From: an uncultured Actinomycetota bacterium
Lineage (GTDB): Bacteria; Actinomycetota; Actinomycetes; JACCUZ01
Length of the DNA: 64,000 nt
Direction: 5' to 3'
NCBI GenBank assembly: GCA_963839955.1
Contig: CAWIXB010000001.1
Coordinates: forward strand, 1,235,666-1,299,665
The position numbers were made by a program, and so were the translations under genes. The notes beneath the pieces are model-generated. The model saw nothing but the letters and a program-made list of their open reading frames with translations. It was not told the origin of the DNA and did not search any database. This document shows, piece after piece, positions 32,261 through 41,867 of the stretch. Position 1 is the first letter of the stretch, and each line of letters begins with the position of its first letter.

Positions 32261-34213
32261 TCAGCTCCCGTTCACCGGCGTGACCGTCAGGGCCACCGTG
32301 CCAGCGTTGTCCCAGAAGCGCGTGTCGGCCAGGGTCAGGCGGACGGGACCGGTCTGTGACTGCGTGAGCTCCAGTGCGTACCGGTGCCCGGCCGCGTCGC
32401 AGCTGCCGCTCCCGCTGACCGGGCGCCAGTCGAGCACCCGGTTGTTGACCTTGACGTCGCCCAGCGCGTTGCCCCGGTCGTCGACGAGACTGTCCCGGAA
32501 GTTGCGCCACGTGGGGTCGGTCGAGGTGACCGAGCATTCGGCGTCCGCGGTGACGCCTGACCGGAACGTGTACGTCCCGGTCGCTGTCACGCGAAGCCGC
32601 TGACCGGCCTGGTAGACGCGCGCCGAGCTGACGCCGTCCTCCTCGGTGGCATCGAGTGTGACCGACTCGGTGCCGGTCGGCGCCTTGACGCGGACCAGCG
32701 AGACGGCGAGGGCGCCCTTGTTGTCGGTGGGGCTCGGGTCGTCGACGCGCAGGTTCACCGGCCGGGTCTGCTGCGGGCGCAGCGTCATCCGGTAGCTGTG
32801 CCCGGTCGTGTCGCACTGGGTGCTGCCATCCGGCACGACGGGGTCGAGGCCGACGTCGTTGCGGTCGAGCAGCAGATCGAGGTCGTCCCGGTCCGTTGCT
32901 CCAGGAGTGACCGAGCGGTTCCGGCGCCACGTCGTGTCCGAGGCAGTCGCCGAGCACTCGGCATCGGCGTTGACGCCGTTGCCCGCGTTGACGGCGCCGG
33001 TCACGGTGGCGACATACGTCGCACCGGCGACCAGGGAGCCGGGGCTGAGCACGCCGGCACCGGCGTTGGCCGGCACCGAGAAGTGCAGCTCGTCCTTGGG
33101 CGTCGGGCGCAGCACGCGGATCACAAGCGACCCGGAGTTGTCCGAGTAGTAGCCGGGCTCCCACACCTTGAACGTCACCCGGCCGGTGCGGCTCGGGGTG
33201 AAGGTCTGACGGTACGTGTGAGTGGCGGTGTCGCAGCCGTCGCCTGCGTCGCGGTCGGCACTCGAGCCGAGGTCGACGCCGTCGACGTACAGGTCGAGGT
33301 GGTCAGCGTTCGGCGACTTCTTGTGCACCGAGCGGTTGCGCTGCCATGTGCTCGCAGCCGTGGAGCGCGAGCACTCCGCGTCGGCGTTCGCATAGGTGCC
33401 GGTGCCGTACTTGTACTTTCCCGCGACCTCGAGCACGTAGTTCTCGCCCTTGGTCAGGGAGCCGGTGGTCGTGACGCCGGTGGACTTGTTGGCGAGCAGG
33501 CGAACGGTCTCGTCCTGCAGGACCGGGCCGGCGGGCAACGAGGTCGCCGGGCGTGGCTCGGCCTTCGGCGTCGCCGGTCCCGTCGGCGGGACAGTCGGCT
33601 TGGGGGCGGGCTTGGCCGGGGGCGGGGTCACGACGCCGCCCTTGCCGGTCCAGAACGATGTGTTCTTGCGCGCGCCCTTCCAGCCGAAGGAGATGTGCAC
33701 GTGGTCGGTGTGCGGGTTCGAACCGGTGTACGTGCGCCAGACCGTCGGGCGCGAGGCGCTCCAGATGCGCTTGTTCCAGATCACGTACATGATCCCGGTG
33801 CGGCGGGCCATGGCGTACTTGTTCCCGTACTTGTCCGTCTTGAGGAGCCAGGTCTTGAAGCTCTCGACCTTGGCGCGCCCGGACGCGGTCTTGGCGTTGA
33901 CGCCCCAGTCGAAGGCGCGGCCTTCCTTGTGCTCCGACTTGCCGCCGATCCGGCAGGCCCGGACGATTCCCAGGCTGCGGGTGCCCGGGTAGGCGCGCAG
34001 CAGCCGCTTCGAGAAGTCCGCGACACCCGGCTTGGCCGCCGGCGAGCAGGTGGACTGCGAGGCGTAGCCGGTCAGCCCCTCGATCGCGCGCGGGTAGCTC
34101 GAGCGCGCCGCCGTGATCCCGGCGTCGGCAGGGCCCACGACGCTGAAGGCGGTCAGGGTGGCGAGGAGGACAGCGAGAACGCGGCTGCCGGTCCGGCGGT
34201 GACTCTCGGGCAC
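32261..34213 (-). CDS. secreted multidomain protein: an N-terminal LAS/M15-like zinc peptidase domain, a Pro-rich linker and three copies of an uncharacterised Cys-containing repeat domain of about 110 aa
   Basis: A GTG start at 34213 has a GGAG RBS and a signal peptide. The SxHxxGxAxD motif is SEHKEGRAFDW and the HxH motif is HTDHVHISF. The linker is PPPAKPAPKPTVPPTGPATPKAEPRPATS. The repeats carry …NADAECS…TW(Q/R)RNRSV…G(D/S)x(Q/G)CDTxxHxYR… three times. Confidence 0.65.
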   Translation of the reverse strand: MPESHRRTGSRVLAVLLATLTAFSVVGPADAGITAARSSYPRAIEGLTGYASQSTCSPAAKPGVADFSKRLLRAYPGTRSLGIVRACRIGGKSEHKEGRAFDWGVNAKTASGRAKVESFKTWLLKTDKYGNKYAMARRTGIMYVIWNKRIWSASRPTVWRTYTGSNPHTDHVHISFGWKGARKNTSFWTGKGGVVTPPPAKPAPKPTVPPTGPATPKAEPRPATSLPAGPVLQDETVRLLANKSTGVTTTGSLTKGENYVLEVAGKYKYGTGTYANADAECSRSTAASTWQRNRSVHKKSPNADHLDLYVDGVDLGSSADRDAGDGCDTATHTYRQTFTPSRTGRVTFKVWEPGYYSDNSGSLVIRVLRPTPKDELHFSVPANAGAGVLSPGSLVAGATYVATVTGAVNAGNGVNADAECSATASDTTWRRNRSVTPGATDRDDLDLLLDRNDVGLDPVVPDGSTQCDTTGHSYRMTLRPQQTRPVNLRVDDPSPTDNKGALAVSLVRVKAPTGTESVTLDATEEDGVSSARVYQAGQRLRVTATGTYTFRSGVTADAECSVTSTDPTWRNFRDSLVDDRGNALGDVKVNNRVLDWRPVSGSGSCDAAGHRYALELTQSQTGPVRLTLADTRFWDNAGTVALTVTPVNGS

Positions 34214-34588
34214 GGCGATTACTCCGGGTTCTTCGAGTGGAGAGAAGGCCCACGGTTCGCGGTCGCCCTCTTGCTGTCTCCAGAGCCTTCGGGGCCTCCC
34301 CGCGGGTACATGCACCACGAACGGGCAAAGGCGGCCGCTCTCCGCGTGGGCGTCGTCCGGGGACCACCTGATCGGCGGTCAACCTTTCGGTCAGCCAAGG
34401 CGTCGTCGCGCCGTGGGCACCTCGGATCCAGGCGGGATGTGCGCGACACGCCGGGCCCCCAGGACCCCCGATGATCGTCCGCAGGGCGCTGACCTGCAGC
34501 GATGCGGTGCCGCCCGTGCCGGGGGCGGAGATCCCGCAGATGGAGGGCCCGAACCACTTGCACATCTGGTGGTGAGAGGCCTACCGTT

Positions 34589-34634
34589 CCACTACATCTT
34601 GTGAATGACAGCGATGTAGTTATCCACATGTGGT
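34589..34634. promoter_or_regulatory. candidate NrdR boxes upstream of nrdR-nrdJ
   Basis: cCACTACATCTTGTGa (34589-34604) gives a 12/14 match to the consensus acaCwAtATaTwGtgt. A second site, ATGTAGTtatCCACATGTGG, has a palindromic core. They lie 95-140 bp upstream of the nrdR ATG. Confidence 0.45.
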
Positions 34635-35347: not shown

Positions 35348-38300
35348 ATGACGGAGACGTCGCACGACAAGCCGCAGGTCGTCCAGGGGGGCGCCGGCGG
35401 GCGCAAGGCTGCCAAGAAGCTCACGGTCGAACGCATCTACACGACCGAGGGCGTGCACCCCTATGACGAGGTGACCTGGGAGCGCCGCGACGTCGTCCAG
35501 CAGAACTGGAAGACCGGCGAGACGATCTTCGAGCAGCGCGGGGTCGAGTTCCCCGACTTCTGGTCGCTCAACGCGTCCACGATCGTCACGACCAAGTACT
35601 TCCGCGGCGCGGTCAACACCGAGGCCCGCGAGACCAGCCTGCGCCAGCTCATCGACCGCGTCGTGAAGACCTACCGCGCGGCCGGCGAGGAGCACCACTA
35701 CTTCGCGACTCCTGACGACGCCGAGGTGTTCGAGCACGAGCTCACCTGGGCGCTGCTCCACCAGGTCTTCTCGTTCAACTCACCGGTGTGGTTCAACGTC
35801 GGGACCTCGAGCCCGCAGCAGGTCTCGGCGTGTCAGCCCTACGACGCCCTCGTCTCGACGCCGGCCGGGCTCGTGCCCATCGGCAAACTTGTCGAGGACG
35901 ATGCCGTGGGCGCGAAGGTCTACGACGCCCATGGCCTCACACGCATCGTTGCCACCAAAGACAACGGTGTGAAGGATGTGCTGCGCCTGCACACGAAGGC
36001 CGGTTACGCACTCGATGTCACGGCCGACCACCTGGTCTGGAAGTCGAGCGGCGACGGCACAGGTGCCTTCGTGCCGGCAGGCACGCTGGCAGCCGGCGAC
36101 AAGCTTGAATGGCACCGCCGCGACGCCTATGGCGAGTCCGAGATCGACCTGCGCGAGATTTACGAGGCGGCCCTCGCGGGCTGGATGCAGTCGGACGGGT
36201 TCGTCGGGCAGTACTCCGGCACGAACCGTTCTCTCACACTCGAGGCGATGACGGTTACGGCCGCTGAACTGGCCTGGGTGACCGAAGCAATCGACGGCGT
36301 GTTCCCCGGCGCACATCGACACGAGCGACCGGTCGTCACGCAGAGCGAGACATTGGACTGCCGGCGGACTCGGCTTTATGGCAACCACCTCAAGCCATTC
36401 GTCAGGCGATGGGGGCTGCTCGACCGTGGCGTGGACATGGTGGTGCCGCCGCAGCTCTTTCAAGCGCCGCTGCCAGTCGTTGCTGCTTACCTGCGCAGCG
36501 TCTTCCAAGCGGAAGGGTTCGTGTCTCCCCGATCGGCGTCGACCGTCGTCGAGGTCGACATGATCTCGGAGCAGCTCATCCGAGGCATGCAGTCGCTGCT
36601 CCTTCGATTCGGCATCTTCGCGTGCGTGGGTTTCAAGAAGGATCCGCGTGAGGACCGCAAGGGCTGCTGGTCACTGCGGATCCAAAACGAGGGCGATCGC
36701 AAGGCGTTCCAGACCGAGATCGGTTTCATCGACCCGGAGAAGGCCGACAAGCTGACTCGTAGCTTTGACATGCCGGGTCGGGCCTCGCAGCCCACGAAGC
36801 GGCTGGAGGTCGCCCAAATCGAGTCGCTCGGGGCGATGAATGTCTACGACATCCAAACCGAGTCCGGTGAGTACCTCTCCGGCAACCTTCGGGTGCACAA
36901 CTGTTTCATCCTGGCCGTCGATGACACGATGGACTCGATCCTGAACTGGTACCGCGAGGAGGGCCTGATCTTCAAGGGCGGCTCCGGCGCCGGCCTCAAC
37001 CTCTCGCGCATCCGCTCGTCCAAGGAGCTTCTGTCCTCCGGCGGCACCGCCTCCGGCCCGGTCTCGTTCATGCGCGGTGCCGACGCGAGCGCGGGCACGA
37101 TCAAGTCGGGCGGCGCGACCCGGCGTGCGGCGAAGATGGTCGTCCTTGACGTCGACCACCCCGACATCGAGGAGTTCGTCGAGACGAAGGCGCGCGAGGA
37201 GAACAAGATCCGGGCGCTGCGTGACGCCGGGTTCGACATGGACCTCGGTGGCAAGGACATCCACTCCGTGCAGTACCAGAACGCCAACAACTCGGTGCGG
37301 GTCACCGACGAGTTCATGCGGGCGGTCGAGCAGGGCGAGGATTTCGGCCTGCGCGCGCGTGGCTCCGGCGACGTCGTCGAGACCGTCGACGCGCGCGAGC
37401 TGTGGAAGAAGATCGCCATGGCGGCGTGGGAGTGCGCCGACCCCGGCATCCAGTACGACGACACGATCAACGACTGGCACACCAACCCCGAGACCGGTCG
37501 CATCACCGCGAGCAACCCGTGCTTCCCGGCCGACCAGCGCGTCGTCACGGACAAGGGTCTCGTCCCGATCGGGGAGCTCGTCCAGCGGGCGGCGACCGGT
37601 GAGGCCTTCGAGGTCTACACGAACGACGTCACATCCCAGGACGACGCTGTTTCTCGGGTTGTCGCGAGTCGCCCGGTCCGCTACATGGTCACGGGCACGA
37701 ACGAGATCCTCGAGTTGCGCTTCTCCGACGGTTCTCGCCTGCGCTGCACGCCCGGTCACCGGCTGTGGACGCGTAACCGGGGATGGGTGCACGCCGAGGA
37801 CCTCGACGCCGCGGACGAGCTCGTCCGCTCCTTCGAATACGCAGGGCGTTCCATGGCCTCCCTCGCCCTTCCCCTCGCAGCGCGGGACGTGGCGCGTCGG
37901 GCGGCGAGGCTGTCCCTTCCGGTGAAGTGGGATGAGGACATCGCTCACTACCTCGGCTGGATCACCGGGGACGGATGCCTCACGGCGACGACGGCCACCA
38001 CCGTCTACGGGAATAAGCAAGAGCAGCGTGACGTACTGCCGCGTCATTCGAAGTTGCTCGCTGGGTGGACCGGGTTCGACGCCAAGCCGAGCCTGCAGGC
38101 CAATTCTACCCAGCAGTTGAGGTCGGCCAAGAAGGATGTCGTGTCCTTCTTGCAGGGCCTCGGCATCACGTCCGGCAGAGCTGGGGACAAGAGGGTGCCG
38201 ACCTCGATCTACGAGGCGCCTGAGGATGCACTCGTGGCCTTCCTGCAGGGACTGTTCGACGCCGACGGCTGCGTCGTCGACCAGGCGGCCAACGGTACCC

Positions 38301-40450
38301 GCTACGTCGGCCTCGGCAGTCGCTCCGAGGAGTTGCTCCTCGGCGTACAGGAGCTGTTGGCCTCGCTGGGGATTGCAGGCCGGATCTACCAGGGGGGCAC
38401 CAAGTCCGCCTCATTCAGGCATACCCGCAAGGACGGCAGCGAAGCGGTTTACGGCTCCGACGGGCCGTCGTTCGATCTCCGCATCACGGGACGCTCACTG
38501 CGCGAGTTCGCCGCCCAGGTGGGCTTCACACTCGCTGCGAAGCAGAACAAGCTCACGACGGTGATCGATGACTACAAGTTCTATGGCACCGATGAGACGG
38601 TTCGTCTGATCTCGCGGGAGTCGCAAGGCTTCGAGACGACCTACAACCTCACTGAGCCGCGCAACCACTCCTACATTGTCAGTGGAATGGTTGTTGCGAA
38701 CTGCAGTGAGTACATGTCGCTCGACAACTCGTCGTGCAACCTCGCCTCGCTGAACCTGATGAAGTTCCTGCGCGACGACGACACGTTCGACGCGCCGAAG
38801 TTCGCGAAGGTCGTCGAGCTGGTCATCACCGCGATGGACATCTCGATCTGCTTCGCCGACTTCCCGACCGAGGCGATCGGCGAGACCACCCGCGCCTACC
38901 GCCAGCTCGGCATCGGCTACGCCAACCTCGGCGCGCTGCTGATGGCGACCGGCCACGGCTACGACAGCGAGGGCGGCCGGGCACTGGCGGCTTCGATCAC
39001 CTCCCTGATGACCGGCACGTCCTACAAGCGGTCGGCCGAGCTGGCCGCCGTGGTCGGCCCCTACGAGGGCTACGCGCGCAACGCCGACGCGCACCGCCGG
39101 GTGATGCGCAAGCATGCGGCGGCCAACGACGCCGTCCGCGCGCTCGACGCGATGGGCCGCGAGGTGCAGCACGAGGCCACCAAGGCGTGGGAGGCATGCC
39201 TGAAGTACGGCGAGAAGGCCGGCTGGCGCAACGCGCAGGCCAGTGTCCTCGCGCCCACCGGGACGATCAGCTTCATGATGGACACCGACACGACCGGCAT
39301 CGAGCCCGACTTCTCGCTGGTCAAGTTCAAGAAGCTGGTCGGCGGCGGGTCGATGCAGATCGTCAACCAGACCGTCCCGCGGGCGCTGCGCAAGATGGGC
39401 TACGCCGAGGAGACGATCGAGGCGATCATCGAGTACATCGCCGAGCACGGTCATGTCATCGACGCGCCCGGTCTGCGCACCGAGCACTACGAGGTGTTCG
39501 ACTGCGCGATGGGCGAGCGGGCGCTGGCACCGATGGGTCATGTGCGGATGATGGCGGCCGTGCAGCCGTTCCTGTCCGGCGCGATCTCGAAGACGGTCAA
39601 CCTGCCCGAGACGGCGACGGTCGAAGAGATCGAGGACGTCCACTTCCAGGGCTGGAAGCTCGGCCTCAAGGCGCTGGCTGTCTACCGCGACAACTGCAAG
39701 GTCGGCCAGCCGCTGTCCGACGGCAGGGGCAAGTCGGCTGAGAAGGCGGTCGAGAAGGTCGTCGAGTACCGCCCGACCCGCAAGCGGCTGCCGAAGAAGC
39801 GCCCGGCGCAGATGACGTCGTTCGCGGTCGGCGGTGCCGAGGGCTACATGACTGCGTCGTCCTACCCCGACGACGGGCTCGGCGAGATCTTCCTGAAGAT
39901 GTCGAAGCAGGGCTCGACGCTGGCCGGCGTGATGGACGCGTTCTCGATCGCGATCTCGATCGGCCTGCAGTACGGCGTGCCGCTGGAGACGTTCGTGTCG
40001 AAGTTCGTCAACATGCGCTTCGACCCGGCCGGTCTCACCGACGACCCGGACGTGCGGATGGCGCAGTCGATGATGGACTACATCTTCCGCCGGCTGGCGC
40101 TCGACTACCTCGACTTCGAGACCCGGTCGGCCTACGGCATCTACACCGCCGACGAGCGGGCCCGCCAGCTCGAGACCGGCTCCTACCAGTCGACCGAGTC
40201 CGGCGAGGACATCGAGGAGGAGCTCGAGTCGTTGGCGCAGTCGGCGCCCGTCACCGAGCACCCGGCCCCGAGCGAGTCGCCGGCGGTCAAGGAGGCGCCG
40301 CCCCAGGTGCAGTCCTCGGCCGAGCTGCTCGAGGCCATCACCGGTCAGGCATCCGACGCGCCGCTGTGCATGTCATGTGGGACGAAGATGCGCCCGGCCG
40401 GATCCTGCTACGTCTGCGAAGGGTGCGGCAGCACGAGCGGCTGCAGCTGA
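35348..40450 (+). CDS. nrdJ: adenosylcobalamin-dependent class II ribonucleotide reductase NrdJ precursor containing two inteins (mature extein about 949 aa)
   Basis: NrdJ extein blocks are present: FNSPVWFNVG…PQQVSA | CFILAVDDTMDSILNWYREEGLIFKGGSGAGLNLSRIRSSKELL…ITASNP | CSEYMSLDNSSCNLASLNL… They are followed by the C-terminal half and a Cys-rich C-terminal tail (CMSCGTKMRPAGSCYVCEGCGSTSGC). Confidence 0.9.
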   Translation: MTETSHDKPQVVQGGAGGRKAAKKLTVERIYTTEGVHPYDEVTWERRDVVQQNWKTGETIFEQRGVEFPDFWSLNASTIVTTKYFRGAVNTEARETSLRQLIDRVVKTYRAAGEEHHYFATPDDAEVFEHELTWALLHQVFSFNSPVWFNVGTSSPQQVSACQPYDALVSTPAGLVPIGKLVEDDAVGAKVYDAHGLTRIVATKDNGVKDVLRLHTKAGYALDVTADHLVWKSSGDGTGAFVPAGTLAAGDKLEWHRRDAYGESEIDLREIYEAALAGWMQSDGFVGQYSGTNRSLTLEAMTVTAAELAWVTEAIDGVFPGAHRHERPVVTQSETLDCRRTRLYGNHLKPFVRRWGLLDRGVDMVVPPQLFQAPLPVVAAYLRSVFQAEGFVSPRSASTVVEVDMISEQLIRGMQSLLLRFGIFACVGFKKDPREDRKGCWSLRIQNEGDRKAFQTEIGFIDPEKADKLTRSFDMPGRASQPTKRLEVAQIESLGAMNVYDIQTESGEYLSGNLRVHNCFILAVDDTMDSILNWYREEGLIFKGGSGAGLNLSRIRSSKELLSSGGTASGPVSFMRGADASAGTIKSGGATRRAAKMVVLDVDHPDIEEFVETKAREENKIRALRDAGFDMDLGGKDIHSVQYQNANNSVRVTDEFMRAVEQGEDFGLRARGSGDVVETVDARELWKKIAMAAWECADPGIQYDDTINDWHTNPETGRITASNPCFPADQRVVTDKGLVPIGELVQRAATGEAFEVYTNDVTSQDDAVSRVVASRPVRYMVTGTNEILELRFSDGSRLRCTPGHRLWTRNRGWVHAEDLDAADELVRSFEYAGRSMASLALPLAARDVARRAARLSLPVKWDEDIAHYLGWITGDGCLTATTATTVYGNKQEQRDVLPRHSKLLAGWTGFDAKPSLQANSTQQLRSAKKDVVSFLQGLGITSGRAGDKRVPTSIYEAPEDALVAFLQGLFDADGCVVDQAANGTRYVGLGSRSEELLLGVQELLASLGIAGRIYQGGTKSASFRHTRKDGSEAVYGSDGPSFDLRITGRSLREFAAQVGFTLAAKQNKLTTVIDDYKFYGTDETVRLISRESQGFETTYNLTEPRNHSYIVSGMVVANCSEYMSLDNSSCNLASLNLMKFLRDDDTFDAPKFAKVVELVITAMDISICFADFPTEAIGETTRAYRQLGIGYANLGALLMATGHGYDSEGGRALAASITSLMTGTSYKRSAELAAVVGPYEGYARNADAHRRVMRKHAAANDAVRALDAMGREVQHEATKAWEACLKYGEKAGWRNAQASVLAPTGTISFMMDTDTTGIEPDFSLVKFKKLVGGGSMQIVNQTVPRALRKMGYAEETIEAIIEYIAEHGHVIDAPGLRTEHYEVFDCAMGERALAPMGHVRMMAAVQPFLSGAISKTVNLPETATVEEIEDVHFQGWKLGLKALAVYRDNCKVGQPLSDGRGKSAEKAVEKVVEYRPTRKRLPKKRPAQMTSFAVGGAEGYMTASSYPDDGLGEIFLKMSKQGSTLAGVMDAFSIAISIGLQYGVPLETFVSKFVNMRFDPAGLTDDPDVRMAQSMMDYIFRRLALDYLDFETRSAYGIYTADERARQLETGSYQSTESGEDIEEELESLAQSAPVTEHPAPSESPAVKEAPPQVQSSAELLEAITGQASDAPLCMSCGTKMRPAGSCYVCEGCGSTSGCS
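35831..36901 (+). mobile_element. intein 1 in NrdJ (357 aa) with a LAGLIDADG homing-endonuclease domain
   Basis: It starts Cys (CQPYDALVSTPAGLVPIGKL) and ends …GNLRVHN, followed by +1 Cys. The dodecapeptide motifs are LAGWMQSDGFVG and AAYLRSVFQAEGFV. It sits within the conserved VSAC|FIL active-site region. Confidence 0.85.
37520..38701 (+). mobile_element. intein 2 in NrdJ (394 aa) with a LAGLIDADG homing-endonuclease domain
   Basis: It starts Cys (CFPADQRVVTDKGLVPIGEL) and ends …YIVSGMVVAN, followed by +1 Cys. The motifs are HYLGWITGDGCL and LVAFLQGLFDADGCV. It interrupts the conserved TASNPC|SEY region. The penultimate residue is Ala rather than His. Confidence 0.8.
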
Positions 40451-40767: not shown

Positions 40768-41067
40768 GTGCTCAAGGCCGCCGGAGCCGTTGTCGCCGGC
40801 GCCACCCTCGGCGGCATACTGCCGGCCCGCCGCGCGAACGCGGCGACCAACCCGAGCGCCATTGTGGTCGGCGCGGGGCTGGCCGGGCTGCGCGCCGCGC
40901 ACTACCTGTGGCGGGTGAAGGGCATCTCCGCCGCCGTCTACGCGGGCAATACCCGGGCCGGTGGGCGCTGCTGTTCCCTGCGGGACTACTTCCCCGGGCT
41001 GGTCGCTCACGTGTCCGAGACGGGCGCACGCCGCTGCGGGCCGCGATCACTCCGGGCTGGTCAGTGA
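40768..41067 (+). pseudogene. N-terminal fragment (about 100 aa) of a Tat-secreted flavin amine-oxidase-family gene
   Basis: The twin-arginine-like leader is RRDVLKAAGAVVAGATLGG. The FAD-binding GxGxxG region is IVVGAGLAGLRAAHYL, with …GGRC… after it. The ORF then terminates, whereas normal length is 450 aa or more. Confidence 0.45.
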
Positions 41068-41099
41068 CGACGAGGCGAGCGCCCAGTTCCTCGACAGCT

Positions 41100-41867
41100 T
41101 CACCAGGCGTCATCGGCCCGAGGACGTCTTCAGCGCGGCGCGCACGAGGCAGTGGCGGACGGTGTGGACCTACCAGGAGGGGCTGCACGAGCTGCGCCAC
41201 CTGATCGAGGAGGTGAGCGACGAGGACCTGCTCGCACGTGTCCCGGCTTGCCCGGACTGGAACGTAGCGGAGCTCGCGGCCCACCTGGCTGGTGTCGCCG
41301 CCGACTCGGCCCGAGGTGCGTACTTCGGCGGCGCTGCAGGCCTGGCAGGACCCGGTGATCGCCGGCGCACGTGACGAGTGGACGGCGGGGCCACCTCGAG
41401 AGCCACTCCGGCCGGACGCGCGCTCTGCTGCTGCGCGACCTCGAGGTCCATGGCAGCAACCTTGTGGCGGCCATGCGTCGGGGCGACCAGGTGTCCGCGG
41501 ACGGGTCGCCCGCGATGGCTCTCGCGCCACTCGGAGATCTCGCGGTCCACCTGGCCGACCTGCGCGAGGCACTGGGCCTCCCGGCCGACAAGACGGTCCG
41601 GTCGCCGGGTCGGGGTTCGCGCTCTACCGCGACTGGCTGGCCGAGCGGCTCCGGCACTGCGGGCTGCCGGCGCTGCGGCTCGACACGGGCCAGAAGGAGT
41701 GGGTCGTCGGCGAGGGTGAGCCCGCCGCGACCGTCACCGCGTCCGGCTACGAGCTGTTCCGCATGATCAGTGGGCGACGGAGCGCGCGGGACATCGTCTT
41801 CCGCACGTGGACGGGCGACCCCACGCCGTACCTGCCGGTCATCGCGCCGTACCCACTGCCCGCCTGA
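41100..41867 (+). pseudogene. TIGR03083-like (mycothiol-dependent maleylpyruvate-isomerase N-terminal domain / DinB-fold) gene disrupted by two frameshifts
   Basis: Three consecutive frames carry plausible protein. They read …LLARVPACPDWNVAELAAHLAG…, then …RALLLRDLEVHGSNLVAAMRRGDQVS…LAVHLADLREALGLPADKTV…, then …LYRDWLAERLRHCGLPALRLDTG…ELFRMISGRRSARDIVFRTWTGDPTPYLPVIAPY. Confidence 0.5.

Follow-up and report, generated by a model that had tools for sequence, protein, structure and literature searches.

A nrdJ gene with two LAGLIDADG inteins in an uncultured actinobacterium encodes a putative self-splicing precursor of class II ribonucleotide reductase

In a stretch of 64,000 nucleotides from the genome of an uncultured Actinomycetota bacterium (GenBank assembly GCA_963839955.1, contig CAWIXB010000001.1, positions 1,235,666 to 1,299,665 of the forward strand; referred to below as the window, with positions counted from its first letter), the gene nrdJ for a class II ribonucleotide reductase (RNR) very probably encodes a precursor that carries two independent class 1 inteins, each consisting of a HINT domain with an inserted double-motif LAGLIDADG endonuclease and each most likely self-excising. 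The match of the two insertions to inteins lies far beyond chance. The two-intein nrdJ is a real but ordinary element of an already catalogued kind, since both inteins recur, each at its own site, in more than 100 related database homologs.

The gene (Table 1) is read from an ATG that lies a short way 3' of a GGAGG Shine-Dalgarno sequence, and the exact 1700-aa protein has already been deposited in NCBI/ENA (P0001). Its identity is established by the NCBIfam equivalog NF005122 for NrdJ (1555.6 bits for the precursor, cut-off 859) and by TIGR02504 NrdJ_Z (581.9 bits, cut-off 399.95), while the Pfam domains on the extein flanks comprise Ribonuc_red_lgC (4.3e-144) for the RNR barrel, Ribonuc_red_2_N for the N-terminal domain of class II enzymes, and TSCPD (precursor residues 1498-1585). 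In addition, the precursor partly matches the NCBIfam profiles of intein-bearing GyrA, DnaB, RecA, RFC, and Pyrococcus RNR in their intein parts. An initial annotation made from the sequence alone had proposed that two in-frame insertions lengthen NrdJ by about 750 aa; the insertions are located exactly at the proposed positions and add up to 751 aa. In-silico removal of both leaves an extein of 949 aa with a computed mass of 103.8 kDa, close to the mature protein of about 105 kDa that had been predicted.

Table 1. Features of the nrdR-nrdJ region, in window coordinates.
Feature	Start	End	Strand	Description
Candidate NrdR box	34590	34603		CACTACATCTTGTG, 127 nt 5' of the nrdR start codon
nrdR	34730	35263	+	RNR repressor; TIGR00244 equivalog, 159.7 bits (cut-off 124.65)
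nrdJ precursor open reading frame	35348	40450	+	1700 aa, 186.2 kDa, ATG start, without internal stop
N-extein	35348	35830	+	aa 1-161, ending in PQQVSA; GC content at third codon positions (GC3) 0.963
Intein 1	35831	36901	+	precursor aa 162-518, 357 aa, 39.3 kDa; class 1, LAGLIDADG endonuclease domain
Intein 1, LAGLIDADG motif 1	36173	36199	+	LAGWMQSDG; acidic Asp, then Gly
Intein 1, LAGLIDADG motif 2	36488	36517	+	YLRSVFQAEG; acidic Glu, then Gly
Middle extein	36902	37519	+	206 aa; begins with the +1 Cys of intein 1 (codon 36902-36904); GC3 0.947
Intein 2	37520	38701	+	precursor aa 725-1118, 394 aa, 43.0 kDa; class 1, LAGLIDADG endonuclease domain
Intein 2, LAGLIDADG motif 1	37952	37978	+	LGWITGDGC
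Intein 2, LAGLIDADG motif 2	38243	38272	+	LQGLFDADGC
C-extein	38702	40450	+	582 aa and stop; begins with the +1 Cys of intein 2 (codon 38702-38704); GC3 0.959

Comparisons with related proteins are based on the 120 best matches to the intein-containing query, from which 86 inteins at the position of intein 1 (site a) and 113 at the position of intein 2 (site b) were extracted; the resulting family alignments were used for hhalign and for AlphaFold2 (AF2) modelling. Intein 1 is delimited by the junctions PQQVSA/CQPYDAL...LRVHN/CFILAVDD, and its splicing residues comprise Cys1, T64-A-D-H67 in block B, Asp340 in block F, the terminal pair His356-Asn357, and Cys at the +1 position. Cys1, the TxxH motif, the terminal His-Asn, and the +1 Cys are invariant in a 19-sequence alignment, the ending HN followed by C is found in 113/113 site-a homologs, and the position equivalent to F:13 is occupied not by His but by an invariant S-G-E. 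The Pfam profile LAGLIDADG_3 (PF14528) matches intein 1 with 3.9e-15 and 56.3 bits (cut-off 22.5), and TIGR01445 intein_Nterm matches it with 33.3 bits (cut-off 24.5). In the 86 full-length homologs, the S-D-G of the first LAGLIDADG motif reaches a conservation of 80-95% or more and the QAEG of the second at least 95%; in the AF2 model (predicted local distance difference test, pLDDT, 90.6; predicted template modelling score, pTM, 0.86), the two motifs stand at the ends of helices 107-121 and 214-228, respectively, each followed by a strand. The best matches of this model in the PDB, found by Foldseek, are TliVMA (7qsu, 1.1e-20), PI-PfuI (8.8e-18), and PI-SceI, and inteins make up the whole of the top 15 in the PDB, the last of them being 1lwt (6.2e-12).

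Intein 2 is delimited by TASNP/CFPADQ...MVVAN/CSEYMSLDNSSCNLASL and presents Cys1, T77-P-G-H80 in block B, Asn376 and His383 in block F, the terminal pair Ala393-Asn394, and again Cys at +1. In an alignment of 21 sequences, C1, T77, P78, H80, and N394 are invariant, and His383, at the F:13 equivalent, is conserved in at least 90%. Intein 2 is matched by LAGLIDADG_3 (2.8e-18, 66.4 bits, cut-off 22.5), by the Pfam profile Intein_splicing (PF14890; 7.8e-10, 39.2 bits, cut-off 35.8), and by TIGR01445 (37.5 bits, cut-off 24.5), so that both insertions match LAGLIDADG_3 and TIGR01445 in the profile check proposed earlier for their assignment as LAGLIDADG inteins. Sequence matches in the PDB include 7qsu (7.8e-12) and the NrdJ-1 intein 8ubs (2.8e-5). 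Motif 1 has four invariant residues, G146, W147, G150, and G152, along with D151, which is conserved in at least 90% of the aligned homologs, and in motif 2 the same holds for L242, G244, L245, D247, A248, and G250 (invariant) and for D249 (at least 90%). The AF2 model (pLDDT 90.1, pTM 0.90), which matches 7qsu with 2.3e-23, places these motifs at the ends of helices 139-151 and 235-249, each with a strand next, and in the fold search the mini-inteins 1zd7, 2imz, and 1mi8 match the splicing domain of intein 2.

The two inteins share one architecture. In a profile-profile comparison by hhalign, the site-a and site-b families align over 339 columns with a probability of 99.7% and an E-value of 4.2e-27, and blocks A, B (TADH and TPGH, respectively), F, and G as well as both LAGLIDADG motifs are in register between inteins 1 and 2. 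Conservation across the homologs is 80-95% or better for Cys1 and TxxH, for the two acidic residues of the LAGLIDADG motifs, and for block F and the terminal Asn. The best PDB matches of both models are exclusively endonuclease-bearing inteins (7qsu, 7qss, 1dq3, PI-SceI; E-values from 1e-12 to 2e-23), and the free-standing endonucleases I-DmoI and I-Tsp061I match the central domains of the models with target-normalised template modelling scores of 0.66-0.74. The four dodecapeptides quoted in the initial annotation were all found, beginning at nt 36173, 36488, 37952, and 38243; in the models, each occupies the C-terminal end of a helix, with a strand following directly, as expected for the fold. 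Class 2 and class 3 mechanisms were considered and are ruled out by the presence of Cys1 in both inteins, and the absence of Cys at block F position 4, which is Asp in intein 1 and Asn in intein 2, provides further evidence against them.

The extein junctions can be compared directly with NrdJ proteins of known structure. The in-silico spliced extein aligns with the intein-free solved NrdJ 7b9q (3.3e-159) unbroken through both junctions, and its alignment with the Thermotoga maritima NrdJ 1xje is likewise continuous over both. At the intein 1 junction, QQVSA/CFILAVDD is free of gaps against both structures, as is TASNP/CSEYMSLD at the intein 2 junction against 7b9q (SNPCSEYMFLD) and 1xje (TNPCGE). 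These alignments, together with intein-less alleles described below for site a, bear out the earlier proposal that removal of the insertions restores canonical NrdJ blocks. The +1 Cys of intein 1 corresponds to C134 of the T. maritima enzyme and that of intein 2, which is held in the N-P-C-x-E motif of NrdJ, to C322; N320, E324, and C333 of 1xje are matched as well, so that all five active-site residues are aligned in the spliced extein. In this enzyme, C322 is the thiyl-radical cysteine, and C134 and C333 form the reducing (redox) pair. Since both +1 nucleophiles are active-site cysteines of the reductase, both splicing events would be required before the enzyme works, and the unspliced precursor should be inactive. 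Downstream of the TSCPD domain, the extein ends in a cysteine-rich tail at 40366-40447 (CMSCGTKMRPAGSCYVCEGCGSTSGCS), which resembles the C-terminal cysteine-rich or zinc-binding tail of many class II RNRs.

Most likely, the 186-kDa precursor is translated and both inteins would then be excised by the standard four-step pathway, in which an N-S acyl shift at Cys1 would be followed by trans-thioesterification via the +1 Cys, cyclisation of the C-terminal Asn, and a final S-N shift. The expected products are an adenosylcobalamin-dependent ribonucleotide reductase of 949 aa and 104 kDa and two free intein proteins of 39 and 43 kDa. The appropriate annotation is that of an nrdJ with inteins and a 104-kDa product, and not that of a 186-kDa protein or of a "LAGLIDADG family homing endonuclease", a name under which several homologs are found in databases.

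The C-terminus of intein 2 was singled out in the initial annotation, in which the missing penultimate His was regarded as unusual. The residue at this position (G:6) is indeed Ala393 and not His; as a sign of something special, the observation does not hold, because the ending AN is found in 99/114 site-b homologs, with RN in 13/114, SN in 1/114, and HN in 1/114, and C at +1, and because other residues at G:6 are a documented minority variant. His at F:13 and His at G:6 both help Asn cyclisation, neither is universally required, and in about 5% of functional inteins G:6 is occupied by a different residue (PMC4031507), so the missing His does not exclude intein 2 from the inteins. The sets of helper residues differ between the two elements, with Asp340 (F:4) and His356 (G:6) in intein 1 and Asn376 (F:4), His383 (F:13), and Ala393 (G:6) in intein 2, where the F:4 and F:13 equivalents were assigned from their spacing in comparison with the Mtu RecA intein. 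In place of a penultimate His, His383 may assist Asn cyclisation in intein 2. Since Ala-Asn is found in 99 of the 114 homologs, the sequences mark Ala at G:6 as a fixed trait of the site-b allele family and not a lesion. The possibility that Ala-Asn marks a decaying, non-splicing intein was also considered and is ruled out by this conservation, by purifying selection, and by the retained His383.

A further peculiarity of intein 2 is the Pro at extein position -1, which is there because the N-P-C motif of NrdJ dictates it. Pro at -1 is regarded as unfavourable in engineered intein systems. The conserved combination of Pro(-1), Asn(F:4), and Ala(G:6) is the only mildly unusual point of intein 2 and lies within known intein variation. 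The site-b family with its AN or RN ending and Pro(-1) could serve as a natural system for the study of Asn cyclisation without a penultimate His, and its endonucleases may be of minor interest to protein engineers.

All 120 of the 120 best homologs are actinobacterial, and nearly all have inteins at the same positions. They come from genera such as Pseudonocardia, Micromonospora, Actinomadura, Nocardiopsis, Amycolatopsis, Spirillospora, and Glycomyces and from many metagenome-assembled genomes (MAGs), and the closest named relatives are MAGs of Pseudonocardiaceae, Sporichthyaceae, and Propionibacteriaceae. Four intein sites recur in these proteins, namely a (VSA/C, after extein residue 161), b (SNP/C, after residue 367), c (LAPTG/T, after G555), and d (GAISK/T, after K664). 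In the window, sites a and b are occupied and sites c and d are empty, with LAPTGTISFMMD and GAISKTVNLP uninterrupted. Precursor lengths range from about 1300 aa with one intein to about 2600 aa with four, and three or four inteins per nrdJ are observed in some actinobacteria, for example in P0025 (2596 aa), P0050 (2574 aa), and P0004. In three homologs (P0078, P0090, P0119), a mini-intein of about 146 aa lies one residue 3' of the intein 2 site (TASNPC/C...VVHN/SEY), that is, after the catalytic Cys, with Ser at +1 and an HN ending. Since this insertion follows the catalytic Cys and intein 2 precedes it, two intein lineages target adjacent peptide bonds of N-P-C-S-E. In the literature, RNR ranks second among bacterial proteins in its richness in inteins (211 inteins, Actinobacteria included; PMC4760082), and multi-intein RNR has been known since 2003 from a gene with four inteins (Liu, Yang and Meng 2003, J Biol Chem 278:46828, cited in PMC2874743). 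The present locus has little consequence beyond correct annotation and will not surprise a specialist in inteins or RNRs.

Several lines of evidence bear on the mobility of the inteins, the most direct of which is a presence/absence polymorphism among relatives. Site a is empty in four homologous proteins (P0071, P0073, P0075, P0105) and in six nucleotide loci (L001-L003, L006-L008), and site b is empty in three proteins (P0093, P0099, P0100), in which GRITASNPCSEYMSLDN is uninterrupted. The joined flanks of intein 1 are identical to the empty site-a DNA of these six relatives at 54-63 of 72 nt, the highest value (63/72) being that of L001, which reads AACGTCGGCACGACCTCGCCGCAGCAGGTCTCGGCG and TGTTTCATCCTCGCCGTCGACGACACGATGGACTCG on the two sides of the insertion point. 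Among the homologs there are also 19 site-a mini-inteins of about 125-145 aa. A mini-intein of 139 aa is also present at site a in a Streptosporangiaceae MAG (L004:4966-5382); it has cleanly lost the whole endonuclease domain and keeps the splicing regions found at the two termini of intein 1 (CQPYDALVST...VYDIQTESGEYLAGNVRVHN). The locus illustrates the homing cycle neatly: at one and the same codon, close relatives have a full intein, a mini-intein, or an empty site.

In composition and divergence, the inteins differ from their host gene. Their GC3 is 0.807 (intein 1) and 0.835 (intein 2) against 0.947-0.963 in the three extein segments and 0.949 in nrdR. The lowest GC content of the region, 0.57-0.60, is observed at 38400-38850, an interval that runs from the 3' end of intein 2 into the beginning of the C-extein. 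The identity of the inteins to their homologs shows almost no correlation with the identity of the extein next to them (r = 0.00 and 0.36), and the synonymous divergence (dS) of intein 2 is 0.9-1.9 against 0.33-0.76 for the neighbouring extein in the same genome pairs, that is, about 1.3 to 3 times as high. The ratio of nonsynonymous to synonymous divergence (dN/dS) is 0.16 for intein 1 in comparison with L005 (endonuclease part 0.23) and 0.16-0.35 for intein 2 (endonuclease part 0.17-0.40), and since these values are well below 1, both the splicing and the endonuclease domains are under purifying selection. All four catalytic acidic residues of the two inteins are present and conserved across 86-113 homologs. 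These sequence comparisons support the view that the inteins are or were mobile, and, once freed, they are probably site-specific endonucleases that would cut intein-less nrdJ at the same two sites and thereby drive homing.

Certain points weigh against this interpretation of nrdJ as a gene for two splicing, mobile inteins. What the sequences and models show is anatomy, homology, fold, continuity of the junctions, conservation within the family, and presence/absence polymorphism; splicing and endonuclease activity are deduced here, and the rate or conditions of intein 2 splicing are not predictable from its sequence, in which Pro -1, Asn F:4, and Ala G:6 are residues that are unfavourable in some model inteins. 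The Pfam profile Intein_splicing (PF14890) gave no match to intein 1 alone; its status as an intein is nevertheless supported by the TIGR01445 match, by the fold, and by the profile-profile match. Weaker constraint on codon usage, and not horizontal transfer, could account for part of the elevated dS and reduced GC3 of the inteins. Moreover, because the query itself contained inteins, alleles with inteins are over-represented in the homolog set, which gives no measure of prevalence.

Among the alternatives, it is possible, although rather unlikely, that both inteins splice while their endonucleases are inactive or no longer engaged in homing, the inteins being vertically inherited passengers that are kept because imprecise loss would destroy an active-site motif. 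The occurrence of the same two inteins across a very wide range of actinobacterial families is compatible with such old, mostly vertical inheritance, and the mini-inteins at site a indicate that the endonuclease domain is dispensable for the host. However, the conservation of the four catalytic acidic residues and a dN/dS of 0.17-0.40, and not of about 1, in the endonuclease segments argue for endonucleases that are maintained; the empty sites in close relatives would serve as targets; and the decoupling of intein from extein divergence, along with the clearly lower GC3, is at odds with purely vertical descent.

It is improbable that the inteins have been domesticated as conditional switches, with redox conditions (for example, a disulfide between Cys1 and Cys+1) delaying splicing, notably that of intein 2, and thereby gating the synthesis of deoxynucleoside triphosphates (dNTPs). 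Both inteins combine Cys1 with an active-site Cys at +1, intein 2 has the conserved non-canonical Pro -1, Asn F:4, and Ala or Arg at G:6, the redox-trapped DnaE intein precursor structure 3nzm is among the fold matches, and conditional protein splicing is treated as a real phenomenon in the review literature (PMC4031507). No sequence feature, however, specifically indicates regulation: Cys1 with Cys+1 is the commonest nucleophile pair of inteins, insertion at catalytic residues is a general intein rule explained by homing-site conservation, and a conserved endonuclease argues for a selfish and not a domesticated element. A narrower proposal starts from the place of the site-b family directly ahead of the thiyl-radical Cys and from its conserved Pro(-1), Asn(F:4), and Ala or Arg at G:6; that this family would be a mechanistically distinct, slow or conditionally splicing class 1 variant, retained by actinobacteria to gate RNR maturation (for example, by redox state through Cys1 and Cys+1), is very doubtful; if it were true, the two inteins together would constitute a post-translational checkpoint on dNTP supply, on top of control by NrdR. 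It is scarcely credible that the insertions are non-splicing remnants in an nrdJ pseudogene while dNTPs come from another RNR elsewhere in the genome, even though only 64 kb of it are in view and many actinobacteria also carry a class I RNR, given the intact 5.1-kb reading frame, the full set of splicing nucleophiles and helper residues, the extein GC3 of 0.95-0.96, the low extein dN of 0.05-0.14 in comparison with relatives, which denotes strong purifying selection on nrdJ, and an arrangement conserved in more than 100 homologs. The reading of nrdJ as a functional gene with two self-excising class 1 inteins thus remains the preferred one.

The gene nrdR lies 5' of nrdJ on the same strand at a distance of 85 nt, and a promoter and terminator scan yielded no plus-strand signal above background and no terminator-like site between the two genes. 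Control of an nrdR-nrdJ operon by NrdR is plausible from the sequence. NrdR boxes usually occur as two tandem 16-bp palindromes. The candidate box listed in Table 1 is the sole exact match to CACWANATNTWGTG in the window, and no second tandem box with three or fewer mismatches was found near it or between nrdR and nrdJ, the best second candidate (34561-34574) having four mismatches. An 8-nt inverted copy (GATGTAGT, 34613-34620) of a part of the box (ACTACATC) is observed 14 nt downstream. The window contains no other RNR or intein, and an Rfam scan of its whole length returned no family, cobalamin riboswitch included. Adjoining nrdR, an open reading frame of 685 aa on the minus strand (32261-34318) has no NCBIfam match; it starts in the manner of a signal peptide, contains a linker rich in proline, and carries three internal copies of an ADAECS...W(R/Q)RNRSV-type motif. 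Downstream of nrdJ on the plus strand (40961-41867), a gene for a mycothiol-dependent enzyme of the maleylpyruvate isomerase family (TIGR03083) appears to be split across reading frames, with profile positions 3-50 in the open reading frame 40961..41374, positions 128-202 in 41292..41867 in another frame, and the middle probably in the third; it represents either a frameshifted pseudogene or a sequence error.

With regard to known systems, the RNR of the cyanobacterium Trichodesmium erythraeum is the textbook multi-intein case and is likewise a bacterial RNR gene with several inteins in one reading frame; it holds four inteins along with three introns of the group II type, whereas the present gene, from an actinobacterium, holds two inteins and no introns. 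The architecture of a HINT domain with a double LAGLIDADG endonuclease is the same in the archaeal and yeast inteins TliVMA (7qsu, 7qss), PI-PfuI (1dq3, from a Pyrococcus RNR), and PI-SceI (1vde, 1lws), although their identity to the inteins described here is only 12-19%, their host proteins or insertion sites differ, and PI-SceI and PI-PfuI, with 454 aa each, are longer and possess extra DNA-recognition regions. The Ssp DnaE intein (1zd7, 1zde, 3nzm), which appears among both the sequence and the fold matches of intein 2, is like it a functional class 1 intein without a penultimate His; unlike intein 2, it is naturally split, has no endonuclease, and resides in DNA polymerase III alpha, and its residue at block F position 4 is Asp, not Asn.

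Two further comparisons concern class II RNRs themselves. The NrdJ-1 split intein (8ubs, 9omb) also interrupts such an enzyme and shows a weak but significant match (2.8e-5) to the N-terminal splicing region of intein 2, from which it differs in being split and in having no endonuclease. Its native junction, presumably NPC/.../SEI, would lie one residue 3' of the intein 2 site and fits the mini-inteins of P0078, P0090, and P0119 and not the window. The closest counterparts are the actinobacterial NrdJ proteins P0002-P0120, for example those of Spirillospora albida, Actinomadura monticuli, Nocardiopsis dassonvillei, Micromonospora, and Pseudonocardia; some of them differ in having one, three, or four inteins or mini-inteins in place of the full-length forms, and they otherwise carry the same two alleles at the same sites, with intein 1 62-80% and intein 2 43-79% identical to those of the window and with shared termini, HN followed by C at site a and AN or RN followed by C at site b.

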